Origin: Bacteroidales bacterium
Lineage (GTDB): Bacteria; Bacteroidota; Bacteroidia; Bacteroidales; P3
Assembly: GCA_024400505.1 (NCBI GenBank)
Contig: JAKSMP010000001.1
Location: forward strand, 5,265-69,264
Direction: 5' to 3'
Length of the DNA stretch: 64,000 nt
Position 1 is the stretch's first letter. The number at the start of each line of letters is the position of its first letter. Below, one piece after another: positions 5,990-57,019 of this stretch. A program made the translations under genes and the position numbers. Below the pieces are notes generated by a model that worked only from the letters and a program-made list of their open reading frames with translations, was not told the origin of the DNA and ran no database searches.

Positions 5990-6609
5990 CAATGAATCTA
6001 TCATATGTTTATGCGAAACTATTCAAAAAGTTACATGGGAAATGCGTTCTGAATAGTCAGGTCAATAAAGGGGCTGCAATCGGCACTGGTTGTAATGTGG
6101 TAAGAAGTACTCTGGGACGGTATTCATACATTGGGCATGATAGCCAATGTGTTAATACAGAAATCGGTTCATTTTGTAGTATAAGTGATCATGTTTTTAT
6201 TGGTGGCGCAGAGCATCCACTGGATTGGGTAAGTACTTCGCCCGCCTTTGAGAATGTGGGAGGCAGTTTAATTAATACACGATTTGCATTGCATGAAGTT
6301 CCTGATACGCCAAGAACCCACATTGGAAGTGATGTCTGGATTGGGCACTCGGTGATTATTAAAGCTGGAATTCATATTGGAGATGGTGCAGTTATTGGTG
6401 CTGGTGCCGTAGTGACGAAAGATGTTCCTTCATATGCAATTGTTGGAGGAGTCCCCGCTAGGGTAATAAAATATCGGTTTTCCGAAGAAACAATACAAAA
6501 ACTGCTTTCTCTCAAATGGTGGAATCTATCAGACTCCACTATTCAAAAAGTATCTACATATGCCACTGATGTAGAAAAATTTATTGTTGAATTGTCCAAG
6601 ATTGATTAA
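5986..6609 (+). CDS. Hexapeptide acetyltransferase (CatB/Vat-like)
   Basis: LbH repeats: [49 protein letters not shown]. The likely ATG is at 5992. Confidence 0.8.
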
Positions 6610-6612
6610 TGT

Positions 6613-6744
6613 ATGAAAGTATCTATAATAACAATCTGTTATAACAACGAAAAGGAAATTCGTGCCACCATTGAGTCTGTCTTGTGTCAGATGCATCCCG
6701 ATATTGGGTATATCGTGGTGGATGGTGCATCAGAGAATGCTTAA
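6613..6744 (+). pseudogene. Truncated 43-codon copy of the 5-prime end of the GT2 gene at 9046
   Basis: 6613-6732 aligns base-for-base, with about 10 mismatches, to 9046-9165 (MKVSIITICYNNEKEIRATIESVL...). It then diverges and stops at 6742-6744. Confidence 0.8.
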
Positions 6745-6801
6745 TTGTCGTTTGGAAGATCCTAAAATAGCTTGGTGACCTTGTATAATTACACTACAAT
6801 G

Positions 6802-6809
6802 TATGTTTG
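6802..6809 (+). promoter_or_regulatory. Candidate Bacteroides-type -7 box (TAtgTTTG) for the inserted cassette
   Basis: TATGTTTG matches the TAnnTTTG consensus, 76 nt upstream of the HNH gene ATG. Confidence 0.3.
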
Positions 6810-6884
6810 CAAATGTCTTGTTTGTAGATTCTTTATCGTTTTGGTCGGTTAGTTAGTTGTGTTTGATTTTTCAAAATTGTATCT

Positions 6885-7253
6885 ATGCTTTTATCAGACG
6901 AAACTATTATTCAAGTTTGGAATAAAGCTCGCAAGATTGATGGCTATAATCCTGATATTTTCCGCCAAGATGCGTGCGGGGCATGGATTGTATTTAATAA
7001 GTATGGTCTGCGGGACAATGACTATGGATGGGAAATAGATCATGTTTTCCCGTCTGCATTGGGTGGTGATGATGATATCAATAACCTACGAGCCCTTCAT
7101 TGGAAGAATAATGCCAGCAAAGGCGATGACTATCCTTCTTATATCGCTAGGGTTACTTCCGATGGGACTAAAAATGTTGGCTGTTACAAGTCATTTACAG
7201 TCAATGCCGTTCTGCGTACCTTTATTCAAAGAAAATATATAGATAAATTCTGA
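6885..7253 (+). CDS. Small HNH endonuclease
   Basis: HNH core: EIDHVFPSALGGDDDINNLRALHWKNNASKGD. Stop is 3 nt before the next ATG. Confidence 0.75.
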   Translation: MLLSDETIIQVWNKARKIDGYNPDIFRQDACGAWIVFNKYGLRDNDYGWEIDHVFPSALGGDDDINNLRALHWKNNASKGDDYPSYIARVTSDGTKNVGCYKSFTVNAVLRTFIQRKYIDKF

Positions 7254-7255
7254 TC

Positions 7256-8167
7256 ATGCTTAAGTCTGTTGTTGTTTCTAAACTATTCGGTTACTATGAC
7301 TATAATATCGACCTATCCGTTTCAGAAAGTGATAAGATTCGATTTATCACAGCTCCGAATGGATATGGCAAGACCACTATTTTACGTTTGATTAATGGTT
7401 TGTTCGGGCATCGGCTAGATGAGTTTTTCCTTGTTCCATTTGCGTCAGTTGAATTTATCGTTGACGATGCTGTGTTCTGCGCACGGCAGAATTCCTTACC
7501 CTCTGAACAGACTGATCAGGATGCTGACGATGAACGGATTGTTACTTTTGAATTTGGGTCTGTCGCAGGGACTCATGACTCAATACTATTGCGCTTAGTG
7601 GATTTGAAAAATCCAACCCCAGAGATTGAGCATGTATTGAATCAAATATATTTGTTTTTCTCATCTGAAACTTGTCGATATATTGACGATAAAAGACTGC
7701 TGCACGAAGCTACAGATTCATCTGAATTGCTTCGTCTGGCTGATTTGTTAAAAGATAAACAACTGCATCTCTCAGAGTCTATTACTAAGCAGTTGAATGT
7801 CTTGCAAAAAATTGTTGACAGATGTGATTTTGCAAATAAGATTTTTGAATTAAGTCCACGGTTTGGTTTCCGGTTTGTTGCGAAAGATGAGAACCAGACA
7901 AAGTTAACAATGTTTGATCTTTCTTCTGGCGAACAACATATCTTGTTACTTACACTATATATGCTTTTTGATGCTCCCGAGAAGGCTATAGTGCTTATAG
8001 ATGAGCCTGAAATGTCGCTTCATCTTTCCTGGCAGGGTGATTATCTGAAAAATCTACGTGAGATTGTGAATTTGCGCAATATTCAATGTGTCGTTGCCAC
8101 GCATTCACCATTTATCTTTGCCTCAGAGTACGATATTTCTGTTGATTTGTTTGAACTTACCCACTAG
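7256..8167 (+). CDS. Short ABC-type (SMC/OLD-like) ATPase, AriA/PtuA-like
   Basis: Walker A APNGYGKTT, signature LSSGEQ, Walker B VLIDEPEMSLH, H-loop VATHSP. Only 303 aa. Confidence 0.8.
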   Translation: MLKSVVVSKLFGYYDYNIDLSVSESDKIRFITAPNGYGKTTILRLINGLFGHRLDEFFLVPFASVEFIVDDAVFCARQNSLPSEQTDQDADDERIVTFEFGSVAGTHDSILLRLVDLKNPTPEIEHVLNQIYLFFSSETCRYIDDKRLLHEATDSSELLRLADLLKDKQLHLSESITKQLNVLQKIVDRCDFANKIFELSPRFGFRFVAKDENQTKLTMFDLSSGEQHILLLTLYMLFDAPEKAIVLIDEPEMSLHLSWQGDYLKNLREIVNLRNIQCVVATHSPFIFASEYDISVDLFELTH

Positions 8168-8176
8168 TATCAAGCC

Positions 8177-9049
8177 ATGGCACAACAATCTTTAAGGTTG
8201 GCAGCACAGTCGATGCAGCCACAGCCGGTTAAAGCTTATATTGGCCAGTGTATGAATTCACCAAAGCGCCAAATGGTGTTTTGTTTGGTTGAAGGCTCAT
8301 TTGACAAGCATATTTATGAAAGTCGTCTCAATCAGTCTGATATCGAAGTTCTAATAGCATTTGATGACAGTTTGCATCATAATCGCAATTCTGTCGAATT
8401 TTTGACTGGGGAACTTCGCGATAACTATCCGGCGGGTCGTTTCATTGGAATTAGGGACAAGGATTATCTACCATTTTTGGGGCAACAAGTCCCAGTAGGT
8501 GTGATTGTAACAGATCACCGAGATATTGAAATGACAATATTGTCATCCTCTGATACCGTTGCGGCGATTCCTGATTTAGCACTATGTTTGCCCGATGTGC
8601 TCCAGCATTGCTTTCATTTCGGTCATATACGAATTTTTGCTGAGTCACGGAACCTTCGGAATAAAGTAAATGAAAAACTGAAAATAGTAGCAATATACGA
8701 TCAGAAGGCTAAATTATATGTTAGTGATGTAATCGGTCATTTGCGTTCCAACTATTTCTCAAAGGTGGATAGCGAATCTAATTGTGCCGAACTAGATTCT
8801 TTTATCAATCTACATGAGTTGAATAAATGTTCGGTATATGATGTGTGCAGGGGTCACGATGTCGTTGGATTGTTGGAGTGGGTTTATGGGAATAATTTCT
8901 CTAGGACAGAGCTTGAGTCTCAGATGATCCAAAATTATCCTGCTGGAACTTTCTACCAAACAAATATGTTTCTGCAAATTGAATCTTATTGTAGTCAGTT
9001 TGGGATTGACGCAAAAATCATAAACGAAAATAATTTGAATAAAGCATGA
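8177..9049 (+). CDS. DUF4435/TOPRIM-like nuclease, AriB-like
   Basis: TOPRIM-style acidic motifs: FCLVEGSFDKHIY (Glu) and IGIRDKDYL (DxD). Stop TGA overlaps the ATG of the GT2 gene at 9046. Confidence 0.6.
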   Translation: MAQQSLRLAAQSMQPQPVKAYIGQCMNSPKRQMVFCLVEGSFDKHIYESRLNQSDIEVLIAFDDSLHHNRNSVEFLTGELRDNYPAGRFIGIRDKDYLPFLGQQVPVGVIVTDHRDIEMTILSSSDTVAAIPDLALCLPDVLQHCFHFGHIRIFAESRNLRNKVNEKLKIVAIYDQKAKLYVSDVIGHLRSNYFSKVDSESNCAELDSFINLHELNKCSVYDVCRGHDVVGLLEWVYGNNFSRTELESQMIQNYPAGTFYQTNMFLQIESYCSQFGIDAKIINENNLNKA

Positions 9050-9813
9050 AAGTATCAATAGTCACAATCTGCTATAACAACGAAAAGGAAATTCGTGCCA
9101 CCATTGAGTCTGTCTTGAGTCAGACGCATCCCGATATTGAGTACATCGTGGTGGATGGTGCATCAAAAGATAATTCGTTGTCGATAATAAATGAATATAA
9201 GGACAGGATTGCCGTTATCATCTCCGAACCCGACCATGGCATGTATGAGGCTTTGGACAAAGGCTTCCAACGCGCTACGGGTGACGTGATTGGCATGATT
9301 CATTCGGGTGATAGGTTGCATGACGAAAACGTGATAGCCGATATCGCCAAGTTCTATGAAACCCACGATGTGGATATGACTTATGGCCATAGTCGCATCG
9401 TTAATGCTCAAGATGTGGCTCAACGTATCAACAAAAGTCCTGAATACAGCATGGGGTTGATTCGCAGGGGCTGGATGCCTTCGCATCAGAGCATCTATTG
9501 CAAGAAAAAAGTGTTTGACCTTTGTGGCTATTATCGTAATGATTTAGGCGGAGGCGGCGATTATGAATGGTTTATCCGTTCGTTCTACAAGCATGGAAAG
9601 GAGCTGAAGATTGCCCGCGTGGATAGATTTGTGGTGAAATTTGCGTTGGGCGGTCAGAGCACTTATAACTATAGCCACAAGTTGTCGAAGAAACATTTTG
9701 ACTATGTGAAGAGATGTTGGCAGTTAAATGAGTTGAAGCCTCCCTGCGGCATCGTATACTGGATGTTCTCGCGCAAGGTTAAACAGTTTGTACTAGCAAA
9801 ATTATCCAAATAA
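9046..9813 (+). CDS. Family 2 glycosyltransferase (intact copy)
   Basis: VSIVTICYNNEKEI ... YIVVDGASKDNS ... GMIHSGDRL motifs. Confidence 0.85.
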   Translation: MKVSIVTICYNNEKEIRATIESVLSQTHPDIEYIVVDGASKDNSLSIINEYKDRIAVIISEPDHGMYEALDKGFQRATGDVIGMIHSGDRLHDENVIADIAKFYETHDVDMTYGHSRIVNAQDVAQRINKSPEYSMGLIRRGWMPSHQSIYCKKKVFDLCGYYRNDLGGGGDYEWFIRSFYKHGKELKIARVDRFVVKFALGGQSTYNYSHKLSKKHFDYVKRCWQLNELKPPCGIVYWMFSRKVKQFVLAKLSK

Positions 9814-10412
9814 TGGCTGATAATAATTCAAAGAAATTGAGTCTTACGTATAGGATGATGCGTAAGATTGGCATGAACTATTCTGAAGAGGAGTATGGTC
9901 AGGTTACGCTGTGGACTGTAATCAAGAGAGTGTATAAGACTTATAGGGATAGTTTTCTGCTGAAATATATGATGAATTCGTGGCTGCTATCTCCTCTGGG
10001 TCCAAGAAAACTGCGACCTTGGGTGTTGAAGAAGATCGGTTGCCACGTGGGTAAGGATGTGTTTGTGGGCGATTCAGTAAAGATTGATGCCGGGCATGCT
10101 GATTTGATATATATTGATGATCACGCCCATATTGCTGGTGGCACGAGACTTTTGTGTCATCAGCGCGATTTGAGCGACTATCATGTTGGGGATGACTATG
10201 CTAAACTCGGTTATAAGTTGAAGCCTATTCATCTGTGCAAGGGTTCACTTGTAGGTATGGAGAGCTTTGTGATGCCTGGAGTGACCATAGGAGAAGGTGC
10301 TATCGTAGGCGCTGGTTCTTTGGTGACAAAAGACGTACCAGCCTGGACTATAGCCACAGGTCGTCCGGCCAAAGTTGTAAAAACGATTACACCGAGAGAA
10401 ATTGAGCAATGA
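9813..10412 (+). CDS. Hexapeptide O-acetyltransferase (WbbJ-like)
   Basis: LCKGSLVGMESFVMPGVTIGEGAIVGAGSLVTKDVPAW. Paralog of 2451..3020. Confidence 0.8.
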   Translation: MADNNSKKLSLTYRMMRKIGMNYSEEEYGQVTLWTVIKRVYKTYRDSFLLKYMMNSWLLSPLGPRKLRPWVLKKIGCHVGKDVFVGDSVKIDAGHADLIYIDDHAHIAGGTRLLCHQRDLSDYHVGDDYAKLGYKLKPIHLCKGSLVGMESFVMPGVTIGEGAIVGAGSLVTKDVPAWTIATGRPAKVVKTITPREIEQ

Positions 10413-11284
10413 AAATATTGACTTTTGATATCGAGGAGTGGTTCCTGAATCAGGAATATTTTGGTAATGACCCAAACTTGGTTAAGCAATACGACAGTTA
10501 TCTGAACCAATTGTTGGATAAGCTAGACGAACGGGAACAGAATGCTACCTTTTTTTGTGTGGGTGGTATGGCCCGTGAGTTTCCGGATGTGGTGAAGTTA
10601 ATCGCCTCCAGAGGCCACGAAGTGGGCTGCCATTCCGATAAGCATGCATGGCTCAATACATTCACTAGAGATGAATTGATGGAGGACACTCGCCAAGCCG
10701 TAGATTCATTGGAGCAGTTGTTGGGTACCAAGGTGATAAGCTATCGTGCTCCAGCCTTTACAGTTGGTGACAAAAATAAGTATGCTCTAGAGGTTCTGGC
10801 AGCTTGTGGAATCCAGTATGACGCTTCTATTTTCCCGGCAGTGCATTCGTTGGGTGGATTTGCGGATTTCAAGTGCAAAACGCCCTGTATTATTCGCTTT
10901 GGCGGAATCGATATTAAGGAATTTCCGATATGTACAACCCAATTGCTAGGACATGAAGTGGCTTATTCCGGTGGTGGGTACTTCCGCTTCTTCCCTTTAT
11001 GGTTCGTGAAAAAGGAAATGCATAATAGCGACTATTCAATGACCTATTTCCATATCGGTGATCTGGTGAAAAGCGAGCCGATAAGTAAGGATATGTTTGC
11101 TGAATATTATAAGATGGATCCTACCCTAAAAAATAGAGCAGTTCGTTATCTGAAGTCAAATATTGGAAAGTCCGGTTCATTTAATAAGTTGATGGGTTTG
11201 TTGGACAAATTCAGGTTTTCGAATGTTAAGACTGTTGCCACTCAAATAGACTGGAGTACTATGCCCATTATCGACTTAAAGTAA
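10409..11284 (+). CDS. Polysaccharide deacetylase (NodB fold, DUF3473-type)
   Basis: MKILTFDIEEWF start, ATFFCVGGMAREFPDVV, HEVGCHSDKH metal motif. Confidence 0.75.
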   Translation: MKILTFDIEEWFLNQEYFGNDPNLVKQYDSYLNQLLDKLDEREQNATFFCVGGMAREFPDVVKLIASRGHEVGCHSDKHAWLNTFTRDELMEDTRQAVDSLEQLLGTKVISYRAPAFTVGDKNKYALEVLAACGIQYDASIFPAVHSLGGFADFKCKTPCIIRFGGIDIKEFPICTTQLLGHEVAYSGGGYFRFFPLWFVKKEMHNSDYSMTYFHIGDLVKSEPISKDMFAEYYKMDPTLKNRAVRYLKSNIGKSGSFNKLMGLLDKFRFSNVKTVATQIDWSTMPIIDLK

Positions 11285-11562
11285 GTTTCGGAAGGCTTTT
11301 GGTGCTCGTTTTGTCGTTATAATGGTGCCCCTTTGTGAGCATTGTTCCTTATTATGGTAATGACGATTGGGTCGAAGAATTGAGTTTGTCGTACATCAAG
11401 GTCTCATTCTATTGGCCAGTAATGGCAGTGAATGAAGGTGTACTTGTATATGTTTTCCTAATTTGATTACTCTATGAGTATGATGTTTTTATGAGACCAA
11501 AGTAAACTATATATTCATTAATTTCCGTTAAACTTATTCAATTTTCTAAGCATAGGTGTTTT

Positions 11563-12198
11563 ATGAAAACTTTTACACAATATCAGAAGCTATACATAGT
11601 GTTGGTAAAGCGTCCTATAGGATTTTTAGGTGCATTTATCGCATTGATTTTGTTGTCACCAGTATTTTTGTTTACAATAGTTCTGCTTCATTTCGCAAAT
11701 AAAGGGGCTGGGGTATTCTTTACACAGGATCGGCCGGGTAAAAATGAAAAGATATTTAAGGCTCTGAAATTTAAGACGATGACGGATGAACGTGATTCGG
11801 AGGGTAATCTTTTACCGGATGAAAAACGCCTCACTCCAGTCGGCAGGTTTATCCGATCAACTTCGATAGATGAGCTGCCACAATTGATAAATATTCTTAA
11901 AGGTGATATGGCTTTTATCGGTCCTCGCCCATTGTTAGTGAAATATCTTCCTTTGTATAGTCCTGAGCAACGTCACCGTCATGACGTTACCCCAGGTATG
12001 AGTGGGTGGGCACAAGTAAATGGGCGGAATAACATTCTATGGTCAAAGAAATTTGAACTGGATATATATTATGTTGAGCATATAGGATTAATGATGGATT
12101 TGAAAGTGTTTTTTACCACAATAAAAAATGTTTTTTTGAGAAAGGATATCAATTCGGCTACATCTGCAACGATGGAACCTTTTAATGGAAATAATTAG
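11563..12198 (+). CDS. Undecaprenyl-phosphate sugar phosphotransferase (PglC/WbaP C-terminal type)
   Basis: One N-terminal TM, then KFKTMTDERD ... DELPQLINILKGDMAFIGPRPL ... PGMSGWAQVNGRN. Confidence 0.85.
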   Translation: MKTFTQYQKLYIVLVKRPIGFLGAFIALILLSPVFLFTIVLLHFANKGAGVFFTQDRPGKNEKIFKALKFKTMTDERDSEGNLLPDEKRLTPVGRFIRSTSIDELPQLINILKGDMAFIGPRPLLVKYLPLYSPEQRHRHDVTPGMSGWAQVNGRNNILWSKKFELDIYYVEHIGLMMDLKVFFTTIKNVFLRKDINSATSATMEPFNGNN

Positions 12199-12850
12199 AC
12201 GTGTTACTATGAGAGATATTCTTATTTATGGCTTTGGTGGTCTTGGGAATGAGGTCGCTTGCATAATTAGGCATATAAATTGTGTGTCCCCAACCTGGAA
12301 TTTGTTAGGATATATTGATGATGGTGTTGCTGCTGGGACAGAATGCAAATATGGAAAAGTGTTGGGAAATTTGGAAACGCTGAATTCTTGGACGGCCCCT
12401 GTTTCAGTTGTGATTGCAATTGCAAATTCTCAGTACTTAGAAAAAATATCAAGCAGTATTAATAATCCTTTGATTGACTTTCCTAATATTATTGCCCCTA
12501 ATGTATTCTTTTTTGATCAAGAGAGTGTTCAATTTGGGAAGGGTAATATCATTACTTTTAATTGTCGGTTAAGTTGCAATATCAGAATTGGCAATTTTAA
12601 CGTTCTGAATGGGAATGTTTCATTAGGACATGATGATGTTGTAGGCGATTTTAATGTTTTGTTCCCAGAAACAAGAATTAGTGGTCAGACATCAATCGGA
12701 AATCGGAATTTTTTTGGCGCAAGAACTTTTGTAGCTCAGTGTCTGCGTATTGGTAATGATTGTAGGTTCGGTGCTGGAGCTTTTGTATTAAGAAAAACTA
12801 AGGATGGATGCCTTTATATGGGCAATCCTGCTAAAATAGTTGTAATTTAA
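12185..12850 (+). CDS. NeuD/PglB-family amino-sugar acetyltransferase
   Basis: Rossmann-like N-terminus ILIYGFGGLGNEV plus C-terminal LbH repeats. The likely ATG is at 12209 (MRDILIYG). Confidence 0.75.
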   Translation: MEIIRRVTMRDILIYGFGGLGNEVACIIRHINCVSPTWNLLGYIDDGVAAGTECKYGKVLGNLETLNSWTAPVSVVIAIANSQYLEKISSSINNPLIDFPNIIAPNVFFFDQESVQFGKGNIITFNCRLSCNIRIGNFNVLNGNVSLGHDDVVGDFNVLFPETRISGQTSIGNRNFFGARTFVAQCLRIGNDCRFGAGAFVLRKTKDGCLYMGNPAKIVVI

Positions 12851-13090
12851 ATGTTAAAAGATATGAATATTCAAGATTTTATCGAAAAATTTGCTGAAGC
12901 AATAGAAATTGAAGCTAGTGGTCTCACTTCTGATACTGAGTTTAGAACTTTGGATGATTGGGATTCTTTGGCATACATTTCCGTCATCGCAATGTTGGAT
13001 GAAGAGTATGATACTCAGATTGAGATGGCCCAGTTCAAACAATTGAAAACTTTAGGCGCAATTGCTGAGTACATTGAGAATAATAAGTAG
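12851..13090 (+). CDS. Acyl carrier protein
   Basis: 79 aa, acidic, with the LDDWDSLAYISVI phosphopantetheine Ser motif. Confidence 0.8.
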   Translation: MLKDMNIQDFIEKFAEAIEIEASGLTSDTEFRTLDDWDSLAYISVIAMLDEEYDTQIEMAQFKQLKTLGAIAEYIENNK

Positions 13091-13104
13091 ATCTCGTATT
13101 AGAT

Positions 13105-14256
13105 ATGGCCTTTTTAAGATATAAAGGAATCGGTATCACTGCTATGGCAGCAGCATTGCCTAAGCAGGTTATCCATAATTTAGAATATACGGATTTTTTC
13201 CCAGAAGACCAAGTAAAGGAGGTTGTGGAAAAAGTTGGAGTCTTTGAGCGTCGTTTTGCTGATAGTCTGACCTGCTCTTCTGACTTGTGCTTTGCTGCTG
13301 CCCAGAAATTGTTTCTGGATAATGATATTAACCGAGACGAGATTGATCTTCTTGTATTCATTAGTCAGACTCCAGATTATCGTATGCCCGCTACCAGCAT
13401 TACGCTTCAGCATCGTTTGGGGTTGAATAATTCTTGTATAGCTTTTGATATCAATTTAGGATGCTCTGCTTTTATTTATGGCATGAGTGTCGTCTATGGT
13501 ATGATGCAGTCAGGAATGATTCGAAAGGCTTTGATTCTTGATGGCGAAACTCGTAGCAAGGTATATGGCCCCCGTGATCGAAGGAGTGCTTTCATTTTTG
13601 GAGATGCAGGTGTTGCAGCATTGGTCGAGCGTGATGATAAGTTTGGGGAGACTACATTCTCTCTCAATTCTGATGGGTCTCGAGCAGATCTCATCATGAT
13701 TAAGGCGGGCGGTTATCGTCATCCGTCTACTCCCGAGACTCTAAAGGAACGTGTTGTTGACGAGTATGGAAACATGCGTTCGGAAGAGCAGGGTTATATG
13801 AAGGGTGGCGATGTGTTTAACTTCGTGATTCGTGAGATTCCTCGTGATATCAAGAAAACAATTACAGAGGCTGGAATGACCGTTGATGACATTGACTACT
13901 TCTGCTTTCATCAGGCCAATAACTTTATCAATGCATATATAGCTAAAAAAATGAAGTTGAATGGGGCTCGTATACCCCATACTATTGAAAAGTACGGAAA
14001 TACCTCTAGCGTTTCAGTTCCTCTGACTATTGTAAGTGAGTTGAAGGATAAGCTTGACGGGTCAAATACACTCATGATGAGTGCTTTTGGAGTGGGGATG
14101 ACGTGGGCTACAGGCATAGTCTCTTTTGTTGATACAAGAATATCTGATATTGTAGAGGTTGTGGCTGGTCAACCTTGCGATGAAGTTCTCTGTCGTGAAT
14201 ATACCCCTATCGAAGGCGCGTCGGAAGAATCTGAAACCCATCCAAAAAGAGACTAA
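13105..14256 (+). CDS. 3-oxoacyl-ACP synthase III (FabH-like KAS III)
   Basis: INLGCSAF active-site Cys, FCFHQANNF His, GNTSSVSVPL Asn motifs. Confidence 0.85.
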   Translation: MAFLRYKGIGITAMAAALPKQVIHNLEYTDFFPEDQVKEVVEKVGVFERRFADSLTCSSDLCFAAAQKLFLDNDINRDEIDLLVFISQTPDYRMPATSITLQHRLGLNNSCIAFDINLGCSAFIYGMSVVYGMMQSGMIRKALILDGETRSKVYGPRDRRSAFIFGDAGVAALVERDDKFGETTFSLNSDGSRADLIMIKAGGYRHPSTPETLKERVVDEYGNMRSEEQGYMKGGDVFNFVIREIPRDIKKTITEAGMTVDDIDYFCFHQANNFINAYIAKKMKLNGARIPHTIEKYGNTSSVSVPLTIVSELKDKLDGSNTLMMSAFGVGMTWATGIVSFVDTRISDIVEVVAGQPCDEVLCREYTPIEGASEESETHPKRD

Positions 14257-15026
14257 TGAGTTATAATCCGTTTAGTTTACAAAATAAAGTTATCATTGTC
14301 ACTGGGGCTTCGTCTGGTATTGGTGCCCAATGTGCCATTGATTGTTCCAAGATGGGGGCAAAAATAGTGCTGGTTGGGCGTAATCAAGAACGACTCAATG
14401 GTACATTGTCTCTTTGTGAAGACTCGTCAAAACATACGGTGCTTCCATTGGATCTGACCAATGGCGCAGCCCTCAAAGATTCAATTAAGTCTGTTGTGGA
14501 AACAATGGGAAGAATCTCTGGTGTGTTGAATTGCGCTGGAATGTCTTCTGTTACTCCGCTAAAGTTGGTCAATGATGAATTGATGGACAATTTCTTTAGC
14601 ACAAATGTGTACTCGGCGATTAATTTAACTAAGGAGGTCTCCCGGGTCGGCATTTTTGATAAAGAAAAGGGGTGTAGTGTTGTTTTCTTCTCTAGCATTA
14701 TGGGACTCTGTGGTGAAAAAGGGAAAACATTATATAGTGCCACCAAAGGTGCACTGATAGCTGCTGCTCGCTCTATGGCTTGCGAATTGGCAAAAAATAG
14801 AATCCGTGTAAATGTTGTGAGCCCGGGTGCTATAGAAACGCCTATCAATGCAAATCAACCTTATATGAATGATCCTGACTTGAGGAAACATCTAGAGGAT
14901 AAGCATCTTTTGGGCATAGGAACCTGCGCTGATATTTCAAATGCGTGTATCTATTTACTAAGTGATGCGTCTAAATGGGTCACGGGTCAGAATCTAATTG
15001 TTGATGGAGGCTATACGGCGAAGTGA
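14256..15026 (+). CDS. SDR oxidoreductase (FabG-like ketoreductase)
   Basis: VTGASSGIG cofactor motif and YSATKGAL catalytic motif. Confidence 0.85.
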   Translation: MSYNPFSLQNKVIIVTGASSGIGAQCAIDCSKMGAKIVLVGRNQERLNGTLSLCEDSSKHTVLPLDLTNGAALKDSIKSVVETMGRISGVLNCAGMSSVTPLKLVNDELMDNFFSTNVYSAINLTKEVSRVGIFDKEKGCSVVFFSSIMGLCGEKGKTLYSATKGALIAAARSMACELAKNRIRVNVVSPGAIETPINANQPYMNDPDLRKHLEDKHLLGIGTCADISNACIYLLSDASKWVTGQNLIVDGGYTAK

Positions 15027-15051: not shown

Positions 15052-16173
15052 GTGTTAAATATCATGCCAAATACAAAACATATAATAAAGTCAGTTTTGA
15101 CCAACCATCGGATGAAACGAGCTGCAAAAATGTCAAAATCACAGCGTATCATGTTCCCTCCTCTGACAAAGAATGAGTGGAATGAGGTGAAGAAAATCTG
15201 GGGGGGGGTAAAAATGGACAGTTCTACACTCAAAATCTTTCCTAAAGGATATCAGATTTACAAAGGGCTTGAAGGATTTGATCCCCAATATTGTCCAAGT
15301 ACAATCTTCGAACCCTATATTTTGCGTGGTTTGAATTTACCTGTTCATGTTATGGGAATGGAACATAAAGCTATTTTGGACATGATATTCCCAGGAATTA
15401 AGCAGCCTATTACTGTGATTAAACGTATTAATGGCACTTTCTTTGATAAGGAGAGAAATATTCTTGATATTCAAGCTGCCTACAAGTATGTTTCAAGCCA
15501 GGATGCTTTATGTATCAAGCCGACTGCTTTTTCTGCTGGCGGCAATTCCGTGAAGAAAATCGTAGGGAGTGCATTAGACTTTCGTCAATTTGAGGAGATT
15601 GTTCTTGAATATGGTGAGAATTTTATTGTGCAAGAGATCCTTCATCAATCACCCAAAATGTCAAGGCTTTCAGCTACATCATTGAACACATTTAGGGTCT
15701 CATCGTTGTTCATCAATGGTAAGTGCTCAATTTGCACTATTATATGCAGAATTGGTCGAGGTGATTCATTCGTTGACAATGGTGCCAAGGGAAACTATAT
15801 TGTAGGTGTGGATTTTGACGGTCAATTCCGCGAGTACGCATACGATTTTGCTTATGATCGATTTTCTCAGACAGATACAGGAATAAAGTTTGGCGATATC
15901 AAAATTAATGAGATAGCTGAACTTGTTAAACTTGTTGAAACTTTTCACCCTAAGTACATTCCTAATTGTGGATTTTGTGGCTGGGATTTTGCACTCGATG
16001 AAAATAACAGTTGGAATCTTATTGAGGTGAATTTGTATGCACCTGGTATCGAGTTCGAACAAATTTGTCCTGGGAAGTCGTTATTTGGTGAAAGAACTGG
16101 TGAAGTAATAGAATATGTTAATCACCATCAGCCGTCTTTACTTGCAATTATGACTAGTCTAGGTTATGCATAA
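15052..16173 (+). CDS. Sugar-transfer-associated ATP-grasp ligase (ATPgrasp_ST-like)
   Basis: IKPTAFSAGGNSV ... FIVQEILHQSPKMSRLSATSLNTFRVSSL ... WDFALDENNSWNLIEVNL. Paralog of the next gene. Confidence 0.6.
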   Translation: MLNIMPNTKHIIKSVLTNHRMKRAAKMSKSQRIMFPPLTKNEWNEVKKIWGGVKMDSSTLKIFPKGYQIYKGLEGFDPQYCPSTIFEPYILRGLNLPVHVMGMEHKAILDMIFPGIKQPITVIKRINGTFFDKERNILDIQAAYKYVSSQDALCIKPTAFSAGGNSVKKIVGSALDFRQFEEIVLEYGENFIVQEILHQSPKMSRLSATSLNTFRVSSLFINGKCSICTIICRIGRGDSFVDNGAKGNYIVGVDFDGQFREYAYDFAYDRFSQTDTGIKFGDIKINEIAELVKLVETFHPKYIPNCGFCGWDFALDENNSWNLIEVNLYAPGIEFEQICPGKSLFGERTGEVIEYVNHHQPSLLAIMTSLGYA

Positions 16174-17281
16174 TTTAATTACATATGATATTATGAAAAA
16201 TTCATTTAGGCACTTTTATTTTACTCATATTGATCCTAGAAGAATTGTTAGTAGGATTAATGACGGAAAACGTGATTTGAATAGTGCAATTGCTAGAGGT
16301 ACACCAATTTTAGAGGATCAAAGAAATGTAATTCTTGATTTTTGGAAGCCTTATACAAGAACATTTATTGAGAAAAAATCGTTTGATATTCGTTGGTTTG
16401 ATGTATACAACAAGACAAACCTTTTCGGGAATGATTTGAAATTATATATACCGGATGGCTATTACTATAGTGTAATTGACACTTTTTTTAATGACCCATT
16501 GCGTTGTAAATATATGGATGATAAGAATCTATATGATCTTTATTTCCATGATGTCAATCAGGCCAAGATGATCTGTCGAAAAGAAAAGGGTCTATTTCTT
16601 GATGGTGAGTATAGGGTGATTACAATGCAAGATGCCGTTAACCTATGTAGTAAGTGTGGTCAAGTAATTATCAAACCATCTGTTGAATCTTGGGCAGGGG
16701 CAGGGATCAAAAAGTGGAATGCTGAGAATGACAATATTTCTGTATTGGTTGACGCATTGAGCACTCCTGGGTCATTTGTGATTCAAGAAATCATCAAACA
16801 ACATTCTTGTTTATCACAATTCAATGCTACTTGTGTGAATACCATGAGGCTTGTGACCTTGTTCTTTGAAGGTGAGGTTCATGTGGTAACGGCAGTTGCA
16901 ATTATGGGTGGAAAAGGTGCTTTTACAAATCATCTGCATAGAGGAGGCTTAATTTGTGGTATACACTCGGATGGGAGCCTGTTCCATACTGCTTTTGATG
17001 GAAATTTAAATATGTACAAACAGCATCCGAATGGGCCTATCTTTTCTGATTGTAAGATTCTAAATTTTAATAAATGTGTTGATCTGGTTAAGTCATTATC
17101 ACCAAGATTATTTGGAATGTCTAAACTTACTGCGTGGGATATTACCATTGATGAGACCGGAGAGCCTTTATTAATTGAGGCAAATTTCGAGTATGGGGGA
17201 ATTGTTCAAAAGGCAGGTGGCCCAATTTTTGGAGAGATGACAGAGTCAATATTAAAGACTGTTCATAAGGGTAAGGTTTAA
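16166..17281 (+). CDS. Sugar-transfer-associated ATP-grasp ligase, second paralog
   Basis: IIKPSVESWAGAGI ... FVIQEIIKQHSCLSQFNATCVNTMRLVT ... HPNGPIF ... AWDITIDETGEPLLIEAN. Confidence 0.6.
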   Translation: MHNLITYDIMKNSFRHFYFTHIDPRRIVSRINDGKRDLNSAIARGTPILEDQRNVILDFWKPYTRTFIEKKSFDIRWFDVYNKTNLFGNDLKLYIPDGYYYSVIDTFFNDPLRCKYMDDKNLYDLYFHDVNQAKMICRKEKGLFLDGEYRVITMQDAVNLCSKCGQVIIKPSVESWAGAGIKKWNAENDNISVLVDALSTPGSFVIQEIIKQHSCLSQFNATCVNTMRLVTLFFEGEVHVVTAVAIMGGKGAFTNHLHRGGLICGIHSDGSLFHTAFDGNLNMYKQHPNGPIFSDCKILNFNKCVDLVKSLSPRLFGMSKLTAWDITIDETGEPLLIEANFEYGGIVQKAGGPIFGEMTESILKTVHKGKV

Positions 17282-50987: not shown

Positions 50988-52238
50988 TTATTTATTGCTT
51001 TGGATAAATTGGATAAACTGGCTGGCCAGGGTGGCGTAGTTGAGATGGGTGAGGGCATAGGAGCGGCCGAGGTTTCCCATCTCTTGGCGTTGGGCAGGGG
51101 AGAGGTCGGCCAGGCGAACAATGGCTGCTGCCACCTGAGCGATATTCTCAGCCTCCACTTGCAAGCCACAACCTACACGCTCGACAAGGCTGCCGGGTTC
51201 GTCCACCGAAAAAATGATGGGGCGGGCAGCCACCATATAGTCGGTCACCTTGTTGAAAGAGGTACCATATTGATGCAAGATGCTGTGCACACCACCAGCA
51301 TAGCAGATGTCGAATGACTGGATGATAAGTGGAATGACGCGTTTCTCGACAGGGGGTAAGAAGTAAAAATGCTGAAGGTCATATTGTTTGGCCAAAGCGA
51401 TGAGTTCGTCCTTTTGTGGCCCTTGACCAACCAAGACAAAGGCAATATCGTGGCGGCTGCGCAATGAGTTGGCGGCATGGACAAGCACCTCCATGGCGGT
51501 GGATTGTGTGTGACCACCGGCGAAGCCGATGATGGTTTTTCCCTGCTGGCGAAGTTGGAGGAAGAGCTGCTGATGCTGTTGTGGGATTTGGACAGTGGTG
51601 TCAATCTGCTCCCATTCTTCAAGAAGAAATCCGTTGGGCACGCAGGCAAACTTGTATTCGGGCAAGCCGTGGCGGCGCATGTGGGGATAAGTCTTGTCGG
51701 GGATGGAGATGACATGGTCGCAATGCTTGTAGGCATAGTTCTCGGCCCATTGCAACACTTGGATGAAAGGATGCCAAGGCTTGTAACCGCCGATAATCAT
51801 GGGGGAGAGGGGCCATAGGTCATGCACCTCTAGCACCAATTGAGCATGTGCCTTGCGGGCAAGCGCATGGCAGGCGTAGATGTCGAGATTGTGGACCGAT
51901 GAAGCAATCACCACGTCGGGTTGACATGCCAGCAATTCCTGTTGGTGTTGACGCACACCGTGTGAAAATTCAAACATGGTGAGCACTCTGCGGATGCCGT
52001 TGCCCTCGTACTGCTGGGTGGAAAGCCAGATGTACTGAATGCCGTCAATTACCTCGTGGGAGGTTTGAGGCTGTTGTTTGCGCAGATGGGAGAACGAAGC
52101 TCCCACGATGGTGACTTTGTGCCCTTGGCGAACCCATTCGCGCCCCATATAATAAGAGCGGAACTCCATGCCATACTGGGGTGCGCCAGCATAGTGGCTG
52201 ATCATGAGTATGGAAAGCGGGCGTGACGTGGAGGGCAT
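50988..52238 (-). CDS. Family 4 glycosyltransferase (WbuB-like)
   Basis: GT-B fold with the N-terminal ILMISHYAGAPQYGMEFRSYYMGREW motif typical of WbuB-like enzymes. Confidence 0.8.
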   Translation of the reverse strand: MPSTSRPLSILMISHYAGAPQYGMEFRSYYMGREWVRQGHKVTIVGASFSHLRKQQPQTSHEVIDGIQYIWLSTQQYEGNGIRRVLTMFEFSHGVRQHQQELLACQPDVVIASSVHNLDIYACHALARKAHAQLVLEVHDLWPLSPMIIGGYKPWHPFIQVLQWAENYAYKHCDHVISIPDKTYPHMRRHGLPEYKFACVPNGFLLEEWEQIDTTVQIPQQHQQLFLQLRQQGKTIIGFAGGHTQSTAMEVLVHAANSLRSRHDIAFVLVGQGPQKDELIALAKQYDLQHFYFLPPVEKRVIPLIIQSFDICYAGGVHSILHQYGTSFNKVTDYMVAARPIIFSVDEPGSLVERVGCGLQVEAENIAQVAAAIVRLADLSPAQRQEMGNLGRSYALTHLNYATLASQFIQFIQSNK

Positions 52239-52241
52239 GGA

Positions 52242-53435
52242 CTAGAGCACGTTAATAAGATTCTCAGCCACAGAACGGATTTCCTCGCGGGAGATGTAAG
52301 GATGCATGGGGAGTGCGAGGACGCTGTTGGAGAGACGTTCTGCAACAGGGGTGAGTGCAAAAGAGTGTACCTCCTTGAAGGCGGTCTGTTTGCTCATGGG
52401 GGTGGGATAATATACCATAGTGGGGATGCCTTTGGCCTTGAGTTTGGCCTGAAGGGCAGCCCGGTTGAAAGATCCGTTGCCAGAAGGAACGCTCAGTTGG
52501 ATGGTGTACTGCGCCCAGCTGCTGCCATAATTCTCTGGGATATATGGGGTGGTAATTTGGATTTCTTTCTTGATGAACTTGGTCATGCCGTTGAGCAATT
52601 GGGTGTAATACTCGGCGGCTTTGTTAACGGCGGTGAGTTCTTGCTCACGGAAAGCCTTGAATTTCACCCGCAAAATGGCAGCCTGGAGGGTGTCGAGGCG
52701 GGAATTGAGACCGATGCGGACATTGTCGTATTTGAAGCTGCCTTTGCCATGCACACGGTAAGATTCAATGAGCGAAGCCCATTCGTCGTTGTCGGTGAAC
52801 ACAGCACCGCCATCGCCATAGCAACCCAGGGGCTTGGCGGGGAAGAAAGAGGTGGTGGAGATGTCGCCGAAAGAGCAGGCTCGGTGGAGCTGGAAACCAT
52901 CGCCCTCGGCATTGGGCAGACGGATGCTGCCGCCAAATCCTTGGGCACCATCCTCGATGACAAACATCCCTTCGCGTTTGGCGATGGTGCGGATTTCGGG
53001 GAAGTTGGCTGGCAGACCGAAGAGGTCAACAGCAATCACAGCCTTGGGACGAAGGGTCATGTGGTCGTGTACAGAGCGGATGGCATCTTCGAGACTCTTG
53101 GGGTCGATATTGAAAGTGCGGGGATCGACATCCACGAACACGGGGGTGGCACCTTCGAGCGATACAACCTCGGCTGAAGAGAAGAAAGTGAAGTCGGGCA
53201 CAAAAACGGCATCGCCTTTGCCAACCCCCAGGGCTTTGAGTGCTAGGGTGAGGGCGTCGGTGCCATTGGCGCAGGAGAGGCAATGCTTGACGCCTACATA
53301 CTCGGCAAGTTCTTGCTCCAATTCTCTTACAGGATTGCCCATGATGAAAGCACCAGATGCTGCTACGTCGAGCATGGCTTGGTCGATATCGGTTTTGAGT
53401 ACTTGATACTGCTTCTTGAGGTCTCTAAATTCCAT
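52242..53435 (-). CDS. wbpE: DegT-family aminotransferase, WbpE-like
   Basis: CLSCANGTDAL, IEDGAQGFGG, TSFFPAKPLGCYGDGGAVFT and NSRLDTLQAAIL closely follow my recollection of the P. aeruginosa WbpE sequence. Confidence 0.8.
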   Translation of the reverse strand: MEFRDLKKQYQVLKTDIDQAMLDVAASGAFIMGNPVRELEQELAEYVGVKHCLSCANGTDALTLALKALGVGKGDAVFVPDFTFFSSAEVVSLEGATPVFVDVDPRTFNIDPKSLEDAIRSVHDHMTLRPKAVIAVDLFGLPANFPEIRTIAKREGMFVIEDGAQGFGGSIRLPNAEGDGFQLHRACSFGDISTTSFFPAKPLGCYGDGGAVFTDNDEWASLIESYRVHGKGSFKYDNVRIGLNSRLDTLQAAILRVKFKAFREQELTAVNKAAEYYTQLLNGMTKFIKKEIQITTPYIPENYGSSWAQYTIQLSVPSGNGSFNRAALQAKLKAKGIPTMVYYPTPMSKQTAFKEVHSFALTPVAERLSNSVLALPMHPYISREEIRSVAENLINVL

Positions 53436-53468
53436 AATTGAAAGATGATATTTGATATGTTGAGATTG

Positions 53469-54584
53469 TTATTTTTCTATTGTTGAGAGGGTGTCGTAGA
53501 GGTTGAAAAGTACTTGCTCCTGGGTGGCCCAGTTGTATTTCTCTTTCACCGCTTTGCGACCGTTTTCGCCCATTTGCTGGGCCAATTGGGGATGGGAGAT
53601 GAGGTGGTTGATGGCATCGGCTATGCGTTGGGGGTCGTGGGGATCGATGCAGATGCCGCATTGGTTGCCCTCGATAATCTCGCGCCAGAGTTCGAAATCG
53701 GTGGCGATGACAGGAATGCTCGCCATCATGTATTCAAACATTTTCAGCACTCCCAAGGTGCCTTTGCGATAGCCCACATTGGGGGAATAGTCCAACAGCA
53801 CCAATCCGATATCGGCTCGCTGATAGATGCTGCCCACCTCCTCGGGTGGCAAAACGCCCAGATACTCCACCCGTTGCCACATTTCCAACGATTGGAGTCG
53901 TTGGAAATAGTCCTGAATGAACACTCTGCCAGCCAACAAGTAGCGGGCGGGTGTGTGGGCCAGGCTGCGGATAATCTGCTCATGCATGTAGCGTTCGGCT
54001 ATCTCACCGGCAAAGCATACCGTAGGCTCTTTGCTGGCGAGGGGGGTATGGGTGGGTAGATTATTGAAGTTTGGGTAATTGGTGACCATCACGCTGCGGG
54101 GATTGATGCGCTGGAGTCGTTGCAAGATGGTGGGGGTGACTGTTACCAAGGCATCATAGCGGGATAAGAGCCGGCGCTCGCGGGCGGCATAAAGATGCGA
54201 GAGTATGGGGCGAGACCATCGGGGGAGGTATTCCTTGGTGAGTAGCTGCATGGGCACATCCTCGTGGGAGTCGAAGATGACGCGTTTCCCACGACGCTGC
54301 ACTTGGAGTCCGACGGAGATGAGTTCGGGGTCGTGGAAATGGTAGATGTCGGCATCGGCTTGGAGGGCTCGTTTCAGCACACGACGGAGATAAAACTGCC
54401 GTTTCAGTCGGCTGACGGGCAGGCTAACCCCCATGCGGCGAACGCCATCCACGATGTCGTCGGGGATATTAGGGGCGATGAGCACTACCTCAAAACGTTT
54501 CGCCAACGACTTGCACTCCTTGTGGAAGATGCGCACGTCGTTGGCGGGGTGGACGCTGGTGACATGACAAACTCTCATGGCCAT
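53469..54584 (-). CDS. Family 4 glycosyltransferase
   Basis: GT-B C-terminal E-x7-E region: ADIGLVLLDYSPNVGYRKGTLGVLKMFEYMMASIPVIATD. Confidence 0.8.
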   Translation of the reverse strand: MAMRVCHVTSVHPANDVRIFHKECKSLAKRFEVVLIAPNIPDDIVDGVRRMGVSLPVSRLKRQFYLRRVLKRALQADADIYHFHDPELISVGLQVQRRGKRVIFDSHEDVPMQLLTKEYLPRWSRPILSHLYAARERRLLSRYDALVTVTPTILQRLQRINPRSVMVTNYPNFNNLPTHTPLASKEPTVCFAGEIAERYMHEQIIRSLAHTPARYLLAGRVFIQDYFQRLQSLEMWQRVEYLGVLPPEEVGSIYQRADIGLVLLDYSPNVGYRKGTLGVLKMFEYMMASIPVIATDFELWREIIEGNQCGICIDPHDPQRIADAINHLISHPQLAQQMGENGRKAVKEKYNWATQEQVLFNLYDTLSTIEK

Positions 54585-54594
54585 GTATAGCGGG

Positions 54595-55590
54595 TTAGTA
54601 TTTCATATCAGACCATCCAAAGGGGTGATCCGAAAGGGGCATCTTGGCCAGGGGATGGTAGTCGCCGGTGAGTCCGATGGGAGTGGAGTGTCGGATGTCG
54701 CTCACAATCTGGATGCAATTGCGTGCTTCGCTGATGCGGAATCCGTTGCCAGCCAGAATTTCTTTATAGCTGGTGGTGTGCAGCTCGGTGAATCCCTGGC
54801 TGAATTCAAATTCGTCGCCGTCGATCATGATGGTACGATAGGTGCGTTTCTCACCTTGTACAGCATTTTCGGGCAGGCAGTCGGCATTGATGCTAAGGAA
54901 ATAACGGACACGTGCCTGGGCAAATTCGAGGTAGCCAGCCACGCGGTCGTGCGACATCACATGGACGATATTCTGCTGCACGGGTCCGAAGATCCACTGG
55001 AGCATATCGTAGAAATGCACGCCGATGTTGGTGGCGATGCCGCCGCTCTTGTGCACATCGCCCTTCCACGAAGAATAGTACCACTTGCCGCGGGAGGTGA
55101 TGTAGGTGAGGTCCACATCGTACTTCTTGTCCTTGGGACCTTCTTCAACCTTTTTCTTGAGGGCCACGATGGACTCGTGCAAGCGGAGTTGGAGGATGGT
55201 GTAGGCTTGGTGGCCAGTTTCCTTCTCCAGATCCACGAGGTTGTCGATATTGTAGGGGTTCAGCACCAGGGGTTTCTCGCAGATGACGTTGCAGCCGAGG
55301 CGCAAGCCGTAGCGGATGAAAGCGTCATGGGTGTAGTTGGGGGTGCAGATAGAAAGCCAGTTGAGGGGATTGTTGGTGTGCTGCTGCTTGGAGCAGAAGC
55401 GGTCGAACTGTTCCTGCTCGGTGAAGAAGGAGCAGTTGGGGAAAAAACTATCGAGGCGACCCACGCTGTCGAATCTGTCATAGGCAGCGATGAGATCGTT
55501 CTGTGTGTCGGCGATGGCTTTGAGGTGGCGGGGAGCGATGTAGCCTGCTGCTCCGATTAATGCGAAATTTGCCATAGTTGTTTTGTTCAA
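54595..55590 (-). CDS. wbpB: Gfo/Idh/MocA oxidoreductase, WbpB-like UDP-GlcNAcA 3-dehydrogenase
   Basis: NFALIGAAGYIAPRHLKAI ... ICTPNYTHD ... CEKPLV ... DLTYITSRGKWYYSSWKGD ... ATNIGVHFYDML matches my recollection of WbpB almost motif for motif. Confidence 0.85.
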   Translation of the reverse strand: MNKTTMANFALIGAAGYIAPRHLKAIADTQNDLIAAYDRFDSVGRLDSFFPNCSFFTEQEQFDRFCSKQQHTNNPLNWLSICTPNYTHDAFIRYGLRLGCNVICEKPLVLNPYNIDNLVDLEKETGHQAYTILQLRLHESIVALKKKVEEGPKDKKYDVDLTYITSRGKWYYSSWKGDVHKSGGIATNIGVHFYDMLQWIFGPVQQNIVHVMSHDRVAGYLEFAQARVRYFLSINADCLPENAVQGEKRTYRTIMIDGDEFEFSQGFTELHTTSYKEILAGNGFRISEARNCIQIVSDIRHSTPIGLTGDYHPLAKMPLSDHPFGWSDMKY

Positions 55591-55599
55591 TTAGCGTTG

Positions 55600-56874: not shown

Positions 56875-56962
56875 ATTACAATTAATATATATAATTATTA
56901 TTTACTTGTTTTTTAATAAAATGCAATGATTGTGATGCAATGAAAAACAATCTTTGCATCTG

Positions 56963-56970
56963 CAAAGATA
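56963..56970 (-). promoter_or_regulatory. Candidate -7 box TAtcTTTG for the minus-strand glycan operon, inside an 8-bp inverted repeat
   Basis: The minus strand reads TATCTTTG. TCTTTGCA-tc-TGCAAAGA spans 56951-56968. About 90 nt upstream of the ATG at 56874. Confidence 0.35.
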
Positions 56971-57019
56971 CATTTTTTTTGTGTATTGACAATATTTTTT
57001 AGTAATTCACTACAACAAT

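Follow-up and report, generated by a model that had tools for sequence, protein, structure and literature searches.

A candidate PARIS-related three-gene cassette with an additional HNH nuclease gene, inserted in a Bacteroidales polysaccharide operon

Introduction

The PARIS anti-phage system is triggered by phage anti-restriction proteins and, among immune systems with an ABC ATPase, is comparatively well understood. It is composed of the ATP-binding cassette (ABC) ATPase AriA and a DUF4435/TOPRIM nuclease, AriB, and has been described in two-gene or fused form in 11 clades, with no mention of an HNH partner (Rousset 2022, PMC9122126; Burman 2024, PMC11464382). AriA sequesters AriB until a trigger releases it, and the released AriB cleaves tRNA-Lys and related tRNAs (PMC11464382; PMC12409363). 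The middle region of AriA contains two insertions, IS1 and IS2, which have been proposed to bind triggers (PMC11464382). In this study, three adjacent genes that encode an HNH nuclease, a short AriA-like ATPase and an AriB-like protein (hereafter the triad) were analysed computationally. They lie in a 64-kb stretch of DNA from a Bacteroidales bacterium (contig JAKSMP010000001.1), which is referred to as the window.

Two further groups of systems combine an ABC ATPase with a nuclease of one of these types. In AbiL (the ATPase AbiLi and the RloB/TOPRIM protein AbiLii) and in OLD/Gabija, the nuclease that accompanies the ATPase is of the TOPRIM type (PMC11464382). In Septu and in the effector of Retron-Eco7, the ABC ATPase PtuA is paired with the HNH nuclease PtuB, which is clamped by the C-terminal domain of PtuA (PMC12065111); the HNH nuclease PtuB of Retron-Eco7 degrades tRNA-Tyr (PMC12673091; PMC12409363). 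The Menshen system comprises NsnA (ParB-DUF262/ParBDB), NsnB (ABC ATPase and DUF3696) and NsnC (inPIN and BECR-type effectors) (PMC12065111).

Results

The triad encodes a minimal AriA-like ATPase, a putative DUF4435-family protein and a small HNH protein

The triad consists of three co-directional open reading frames (ORFs) on the + strand of the window: the HNH gene at 6885-7253 (122 aa), the ATPase gene at 7256-8167 (303 aa) and gene 3 at 8177-9049 (290 aa). The HNH and ATPase genes are separated by 2 nt, the ATPase gene and gene 3 by 9 nt, and the stop codon of gene 3 shares the sequence ATGA with the ATG, at 9046, of a downstream gene for a family 2 glycosyltransferase (GT2). This layout had been reported by an earlier prediction made from the sequence alone (hereafter the original prediction), and the motifs that it had read were all present in the translations, namely APNGYGKTT, LSSGEQ, VLIDEPE and ATHSP in the ATPase, LVEGSFD and IRDKDY in gene 3, and DHVFPS...NNLRALHWKNNASKGD in the HNH protein. 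The Pfam scan that it had proposed gave matches above cut-off for the ATPase (AAA_21 and AAA_15) and for the HNH protein (HNH and HNH_4). These are not chance ORFs, as two of the three products exceed Pfam cut-offs and all three have many homologs.

The Pfam scores of the ATPase were 68.3 bits for AAA_21 (1.6e-18) and 59.4 bits for AAA_15 (6e-16), and that for ABC_tran was 23.1 bits, under the 25-bit cut-off. PADLOC models for PtuA (2.6e-24) and AriA (8.8e-24) matched it roughly equally. A profile search of the PDB showed that its closest solved relative is AriA (8UX9, 9e-14), with PtuA (8EE4) weaker at 3e-7. The protein belongs to the AAA_15/AAA_21 defence clade, and its reading in the original prediction as a short ABC ATPase of a PARIS-like pair is supported. 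The Walker A motif (residues 33-41), the signature LSSGEQ (222-227), Walker B (246-252) and the H-loop (281-285) are invariant across the family alignment. Residues 6-74 align to AriA 10-74 and residues 155-296 to AriA 298-437, so that residues 75-154 occupy the place of AriA 75-297. The ATPase ends 18 residues past the H-loop. The match to the PtuA profile spans positions 4-294 of 404, and the last ~110 profile positions are missing; therefore, the C-terminal domain of PtuA is absent from this ATPase, which belongs to a minimal ABC/SMC type. Across triads, the length of the ATPase ranges from ~300 to 455 aa.

Gene 3 is less readily classified. The sole library match of the window protein was a weak one to the PADLOC AriB model (PDLC02983, 4.1e-5), which covered nearly the full length, and neither an NCBIfam nor a significant PHROG annotation was obtained. 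Just 39 clusters of homologs were found in a set of 5.8 billion proteins, several of them with precomputed PF14491 (DUF4435). When 22 relatives were examined, 17 matched DUF4435 at E<=0.01 (best 2.4e-14) and 18 matched the PADLOC AriB model (best 5e-16). In an alignment of 47 diverse members, E39, D43, D94, D96, T112, D113, D116, E118, G226 and D228 are invariant and H227 is nearly so, a pattern that, judged from the alignment, corresponds to a predicted TOPRIM-type Glu and DxD signature with extra acidic residues.

A P2-like coliphage hotspot, which is the classic setting of PARIS, provided a comparator: a distant two-gene phage cassette without an HNH gene, composed of an ATPase and a 283-aa protein. 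It stood in for canonical E. coli ariA, which a search of the phage collection with a fragment of AriA did not retrieve. Comparison of the gene-3 family with the 283-aa protein by hhalign gave a probability of 96.7% (E 4e-10), and the motifs line up. Profiles of the gene-3 family built from 22 and from 47 sequences gave spurious S17 matches and a weak match to RNase M5 (E 2.4) in the PDB. The AlphaFold2 (AF2) model of gene 3 was confident, with a predicted local distance difference test (pLDDT) score of 90.5; its fold neighbours, none of them significant, were Topo I, GyrB, small TOPRIM proteins and RloB (Foldseek E 0.07-2.4), and the best viral match, in BFVD, was a RloB-like protein, also non-significant. 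Transitive and profile evidence together point to gene 3 being a member of the DUF4435 family that is distantly related to AriB as characterised. The DUF4435/TOPRIM assignment of the original prediction is therefore carried by the relatives and by the profile alignment, and not by a Pfam match of the window protein itself.

The HNH protein scored 25.7 bits for Pfam HNH and 25.3 bits for HNH_4. The family alignment showed that its catalytic pattern, D52-H53 ... N67 ... N75, is of the Cas9-type 'HNN' kind, and the hallmarks of the beta-beta-alpha-metal superfamily (a D-H general base, a structural Asn and a metal-binding Asn/His) are all present. The catalytic motif is kept in 44 of 45 triads. 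The protein has no separate DNA-binding domain. Its family consists of stand-alone proteins of ~120 aa and is large: a search of 1.84 billion representatives gave 1184 clusters (at 50% identity) with E<=1e-10, and there were at least 571 matches in species-representative genomes. In the AF2 model (pLDDT 94), only the beta-beta-alpha-metal core resembles solved structures, those of the Cas9 and Cas8f-HNH domains; the core superposes on the Cas9 HNH domain with a root-mean-square deviation of about 1 A over 33-43 residues, with a Foldseek E of only about 0.4. No PADLOC PtuB model matched the window protein or 26 family members, and the family profile retrieved no PtuB chain from the PDB at E<=10. 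In addition, the HNH profile found its top match among the representatives in P0160, a 306-aa protein with four matched stretches that is possibly a tandem multi-HNH fusion.

The three genes form a conserved unit

The gene order HNH (120 aa), AAA_21 ATPase (~305-350 aa), gene 3 (~280 aa) was present in every gene-3-homolog context examined (32-54% identity), and distant HNH homologs showed the same triad with ATPases of up to 436 aa. The order is constant and the spacing near zero or overlapping. Among the 80 best species-level HNH matches, 45 lay in a full triad, 25 were without both partners, 9 were on contigs too short to judge and 1 was without an HNH ORF. In the reverse direction, metagenome contigs were scanned with gene 3, and an HNH gene was found in 53 of the 54 loci having enough upstream sequence: 48 of the 54 were full triads, in 5 HNH-positive loci the ATPase was missed by the distance criterion, and 1 had no detectable HNH gene. 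The HNH gene is thus syntenic with the pair in other genomes, a point on which the original prediction depended. Relaxed criteria brought the total to 112 triads, of which 95 are non-identical.

Pairwise distances of the three proteins were strongly correlated (r = 0.79 for HNH/ATPase, 0.72 for HNH/gene 3 and 0.84 for ATPase/gene 3; maximum 0.11 in 500 label permutations), which shows that the genes are inherited together as a unit and is not proof of physical interaction. The HNH protein is the most conserved of the three, with a mean pairwise identity of 48% versus 31% and 26% for the other two. Carriers are mostly gut and rumen Bacteroidales, with sporadic occurrences in metagenome-assembled genomes (MAGs) of Treponema, Fibrobacter, Elusimicrobia and Firmicutes. 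Individual carriers include Muribaculaceae Isolate-036 (contig RIAY01000008.1, L038) and Prevotella sp. tf2-5 (NZ_FOWK01000013.1, L092), the HNH protein of the latter having Leu at the position of the catalytic His. On viral contigs, 1 of 40 HNH relatives lay within a triad. One Paludibacteraceae MAG (L057) carries two different triads ~5 kb apart (9977-12420 and 15208-~17900), with ATPases of 386 and 430 aa.

Loci with the HNH gene only revealed small groups and no common alternative partner. In some of them, the HNH gene lies directly upstream of ThsB-TIR and SLATT, of SIR2, of a 306-aa unknown protein and a GHKL ATPase (Segatella copri), or of a ParB-methylase (L045 10382-11664; L084 10220-11953; L055 10375-13885; L104 3129-4454). 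Some such homologs adjoin integrases, and the contexts are defence islands or mobile elements. The small HNH protein may be a reusable module in several systems.

The triad lies on an inserted cassette bracketed by a duplicated gene junction

A direct repeat of 149 nt with 88% identity was found on either side of the triad (6602-6750 and 9035-9183, spacing 2433), and the 275-nt 'intergenic' stretch before the HNH gene holds its left copy. In the left copy (+ strand), the last 8 nt of an acetyltransferase gene are followed by the junction and by a truncated 5' portion of the GT2 gene, with an ATG at 6613, 43 codons and a stop at 6742-6744 (translation KVSIITICYNNEKEIRATIESV...). The right copy (+ strand) contains the junction and the start of the intact GT2 gene, which occupies 9046-9813 (Pfam Glycos_transf_2). 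Close homologs of this GT2 (79% and 75% identity) were found in loci with the same block of genes, that is, GT1, Hexapep, GT2, Hexapep and deacetylase. In these loci (L216-L219), the acetyltransferase gene directly abuts the GT2 gene and no cassette is present (for example, L216 4347-5771 and L218 4369-5771). A four-way alignment showed that homology to the empty sites stops at ~6750 and restarts at ~9035; therefore, the cassette spans 6751-9034 (2284 nt) and is inserted between the acetyltransferase and GT2 genes. That the triad is part of an insertion bracketed by a duplicated GT2 fragment, inside a polysaccharide operon, had been missed by the original prediction.

As the junction was duplicated by the insertion, both neighbouring genes stayed intact. 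The last five codons of gene 3 (9035-9049) read into the right copy of the duplicated junction, which accounts for the extra length of the protein (its relatives have about 279 aa) and for the ATGA sequence. The stop/ATG overlap at 9046-9049 is thus a by-product of the insertion.

Brackets of locus-specific direct repeats were found in 11 of 71 testable triads, compared with 3 of 195 control pseudo-cassettes that had been displaced within the same loci (Fisher p = 5e-5). HNH-only genes were bracketed in 1 of 40 cases. The repeats are 24-194 nt long; one copy follows closely on the upstream gene, and the other immediately precedes or overlaps the beginning of the downstream gene. Three of the 11 bracketed loci (L037, L066 and L146) look low-complexity or tandem and are to be discounted; further bracketed triads, with repeats of 27-194 nt, are at L017, L024, L041, L059, L061, L179 and L199. 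The repeats are unrelated between loci and no terminal motif is shared by the ends of the 11 bracketed cassettes, and for these reasons the brackets are read as target duplications and not as att sites. No recognisable recombinase is encoded in the cassette. A long target duplication could arise without one through a Campbell-type single crossover of a circular, junction-carrying form of the cassette, or, as another option, through widely staggered nicks. A search of PLSDB gave no DNA match between plasmids and the cassette.

The cassette begins with a 5' leader of 134 nt (6751-6884, + strand) that has no homology to the empty site and contains a TAnnTTTG-like motif, TATGTTTG, at 6802-6809. 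A scan for sigma-70 promoters and terminators gave no signal above shuffled sequences, and the Bacteroides-type TTTG...TAnnTTTG pattern was not enriched. The leaders of close-relative cassettes do not align, so that a conserved promoter could not be shown. No tRNA gene or Rfam family was found anywhere in the window.

Triads are enriched beside polysaccharide genes and also adjoin defence genes

The cassette is flanked on both sides by a polysaccharide operon (36-21282 of the window). Genes upstream encode a flippase, a pyruvyl transferase, acetyltransferases, YdjC, GT2 and GT1; those downstream encode GT2, an acetyltransferase, a deacetylase, Bac_transf, a PglD-like protein, ACP/KAS III/SDR proteins and ATP-grasp proteins. 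The acyl carrier protein (ACP), KAS III-type synthase and SDR reductase genes lie at 12851-15026 and are followed by two sugar-transfer ATP-grasp genes (15052-17281), a set that suggests an acylated or amino-acid-decorated sugar. A second polysaccharide-type gene group lies on the minus strand at ~50988-61314 (seed matches at 50988-53435, 55600-56874 and 60181-61314).

The closest clade of the window triad is also found inside polysaccharide operons, with different flanking genes each time. Of 55 triads flanked by 3 kb or more on each side, 35 lie within 6 kb of one or more polysaccharide-type genes, and such genes make up 15% of all flank genes; the remaining ~40% of these triads lack a polysaccharide gene in their vicinity, some of them being in polysaccharide utilization locus (PUL) or defence-island contexts. 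After the seed loci had been removed by hand, polysaccharide-type genes made up 58 of 540 flank genes (11%) and occurred in 30 of 50 loci, compared with 4 of 241 genes (1.7%) and 2 of 19 loci for HNH-only genes (Fisher p = 2e-6). Triads are therefore enriched ~6-fold beside polysaccharide genes, an approximate figure given a control that is not taxonomically matched and an incomplete seed set. Pfam annotation of the immediate neighbours showed epimerases, DegT, Bac_transf, GT4 and UpxY-type NusG mixed with TIR, DarT, HEPN, Eco57I and PRTase-CE. The defence-type neighbours of triads are TIR, DarT, HEPN, Eco57I, AbiC-like proteins and YobI/KAP ATPases. There is a precedent for nesting, an ATPase/DUF4435 pair inside a Salmonella BREX locus (PMC9009780).

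Discussion

Taking the protein families, their joint inheritance and the surroundings of the triads together, we consider it fairly probable that the triad is a self-contained three-gene anti-phage cassette of the abortive-infection type, related to PARIS. The minimal AriA-like ATPase would act as sensor and scaffold and would keep the AriB-like TOPRIM nuclease, and probably the HNH nuclease as well, inactive within a complex. Either a trigger derived from the phage or ATP-dependent remodelling would then release or activate the nucleases, and these would cut nucleic acid and so halt growth in the infected cell. Their target may well be tRNA, as it is for AriB and for the HNH nuclease PtuB of Retron-Eco7. 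The HNH protein would be a near-obligate third subunit, serving as a second effector or as an adaptor. The cassette appears to be mobile and, in the window, is probably co-transcribed with the polysaccharide operon into which it was inserted.

Several observations weigh against this reading. A mirror-tree correlation is expected for any genes that are merely co-inherited. Gene 3 of the window had no Pfam match even at E<=1 and so falls short of the DUF4435 threshold; E. coli AriB in the PDB was detected by neither profile of the gene-3 family, and a search of the PDB and BFVD with the gene-3 model returned nothing significant and did not retrieve AriB. The ATPase is missing ~140 residues of the AriA middle region, including the IS1 and IS2 insertions, so that infection may be sensed in another way or by a different subunit. 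Genes of the HNH family are also found where the pair is absent (25 of 80 genome loci and 39 of 40 viral loci), which suggests that the HNH protein can work alone and need not be a subunit. Lastly, there is a rare triad branch in which the catalytic His of the HNH protein has been lost (DY or DL in place of DH; P0153 in L013/L014, 6001-6369, and L092, 9977-10351). The HNH proteins of this branch are also without some nearby conserved residues and their TOPRIM partner keeps all its catalytic residues, which hints at a non-catalytic role for the HNH protein there.

The ATPase and DUF4435 proteins might alternatively be an ordinary two-component PARIS-type system, with the HNH protein a selfish or mobility nuclease, similar to a homing endonuclease, that travels along and promotes insertion. 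The cassette is demonstrably inserted and has no recognisable recombinase, viral contigs and mobile elements often carry an HNH gene of this family by itself, and the high conservation of the HNH protein is what would be expected of an enzyme with a fixed substrate. However, target duplications bracket just 1 of 40 HNH-only genes, the ~120-aa protein has no separate DNA-binding domain, and the insertion targets have no common sequence, which argues against a site-specific nuclease. Homing endonuclease genes are, moreover, typically sporadic among close relatives, whereas the HNH gene was present in 53 of 54 gene-3 loci; the tight or overlapping spacing and the co-divergence of the three genes point the same way, and we regard this explanation as unlikely. 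The triad might also be mainly an addiction module of the toxin-antitoxin (TA) kind that stabilises itself and the polysaccharide locus, with phage defence at most a side effect. PARIS has been treated as TA-like, PDB entries call AriA an 'antitoxin', and PARIS is listed among TA systems (PMC13139388); the cassette behaves as a selfish insertion, and it is enriched in highly exchangeable polysaccharide loci. Against this stand the bona fide defence genes that are frequent neighbours of triads and the anti-phage nature of every characterised relative that has an ATPase of this clade (PMC11464382). Defence and addiction are not mutually exclusive and the distinction is partly a matter of emphasis, but addiction as the main role seems quite improbable.

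A role of the triad in polysaccharide synthesis or export, for example through the ATPase acting in the ABC transporter of the locus, would be in keeping with the position of the cassette within the operon, its co-orientation, the overlap of its last stop codon with the next gene and the enrichment of triads near such genes. This role is extremely improbable, as the empty sites effectively refute it: related loci keep the same flanking genes without the cassette. The ~40% of well-flanked triads that have no polysaccharide gene nearby speak against it too, as do the lack of a membrane partner, the matches of the ATPase to AAA_21/AAA_15 with a sub-threshold score for ABC_tran, and the nature of both partners of the ATPase, which are nucleases.

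The favoured reading, an anti-phage cassette, can be extended to a joint proposal, which we put forward tentatively as a possibility: that the triad is a mobile defence cassette without a recombinase that inserts at gene junctions within operons, and that the HNH protein is a true third subunit. Insertion would then favour capsule or O-antigen-type operons of Bacteroidales and would leave target duplications of tens to ~200 nt with the neighbouring genes intact. If so, the triad would be a dual-nuclease PARIS-like system under the control of a host operon, maybe a phase-variable capsule operon. As a second effector, the HNH protein could make it more difficult for a phage that encodes one rescue tRNA to overcome the system; alternatively, it could be the nuclease by which the insertion is made. 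Together with the empty sites and the locus bias, the insertion scars suggest that, in Bacteroidales of the gut and rumen, defence cassettes may use capsule loci as landing pads. Capsules govern phage susceptibility in Bacteroides, and intracellular defence could, if this suggestion is correct, be coupled to capsule expression. The triad branch also offers a natural experiment on how infection may be sensed without the insertion domains of AriA and on what a second nuclease adds.

No description of a system combining DUF4435 or AriB with HNH was found in the searchable literature, the coverage of which is incomplete and does not extend to newer catalogues, and neither the HNH protein nor any of 26 relatives is recognised by a PADLOC-DB v2 model as part of a system. 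The three-gene form is therefore apparently undescribed, in the sense of not having been found and not of being proven absent, in agreement with the view taken in the original prediction. The PADLOC models gave AriA and PtuA on the ATPase and a weak AriB on gene 3, and no system component on the HNH protein. The PARIS-like half of the description offered by the original prediction, a PARIS-like pair with a Septu-like nuclease, is supported, and the Septu-like or hybrid half is not, as no PtuB model or structure matched.

Among known systems, Menshen resembles the triad in having three genes, with an ABC ATPase that has been proposed to be a transducer between sensor and nuclease effector (PMC12065111); it was ruled out by domain content, as the domains that define Menshen were not found in any of the three proteins. 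Unlike AbiL, the triad has no RloB Pfam match and includes an HNH gene. Unlike the fused OLD/GajA proteins, its ATPase and TOPRIM moieties are separate, and they have no Toprim_Old Pfam match. The triad shares with Septu and the Retron-Eco7 effector an ATPase of the same broad ABC clade (PADLOC PtuA, 2.6e-24) and an HNH nuclease. However, its HNH protein is only ~120 aa long and is encoded upstream of the ATPase, whereas the order in Septu is PtuA then PtuB; a TOPRIM partner is present; and the ATPase does not have the C-terminal domain with which PtuA holds PtuB. Septu membership was accordingly ruled out by the lack of PtuB similarity, the missing PtuA C-terminal domain and the reversed gene order.

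PARIS is the closest of the described systems. As in PARIS, an ATPase of the AriA clade is followed by a predicted DUF4435/TOPRIM-type nuclease, the genes are tightly packed, and the catalytic Glu and DxD are conserved. The detection rule for PARIS calls for AAA_15 at >=32 bits or AAA_21 at >=27 bits, adjacent to a partner with DUF4435 at >=27 bits (Rousset 2022); the ATPase of the window scores above both of the former values (59.4 and 68.3 bits) and lies 9 nt from its partner, and gene 3 of the window stays outside the DUF4435 part of the rule. The triad differs from two-gene or fused PARIS in its near-obligate upstream HNH gene (53 of 54 gene-3-selected loci). AriA is a protein of 464 aa (~53-55 kDa) with an IS1/IS2 coiled coil that forms a hexamer sequestering AriB, whereas the ATPase of this triad has 303 aa. 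Triads are rare on viral contigs (1 of 40 HNH relatives), whereas PARIS is often phage- or satellite-borne. Rules written for two-gene PARIS would mis-annotate or miss these loci, a widespread branch that comprises at least 95 distinct triads. Taken together, the triad falls within a familiar design space, in which ABC ATPases are paired with interchangeable nucleases; it is neither PARIS as operationally defined nor a Septu hybrid, but a PARIS-like relative with an extra HNH protein.

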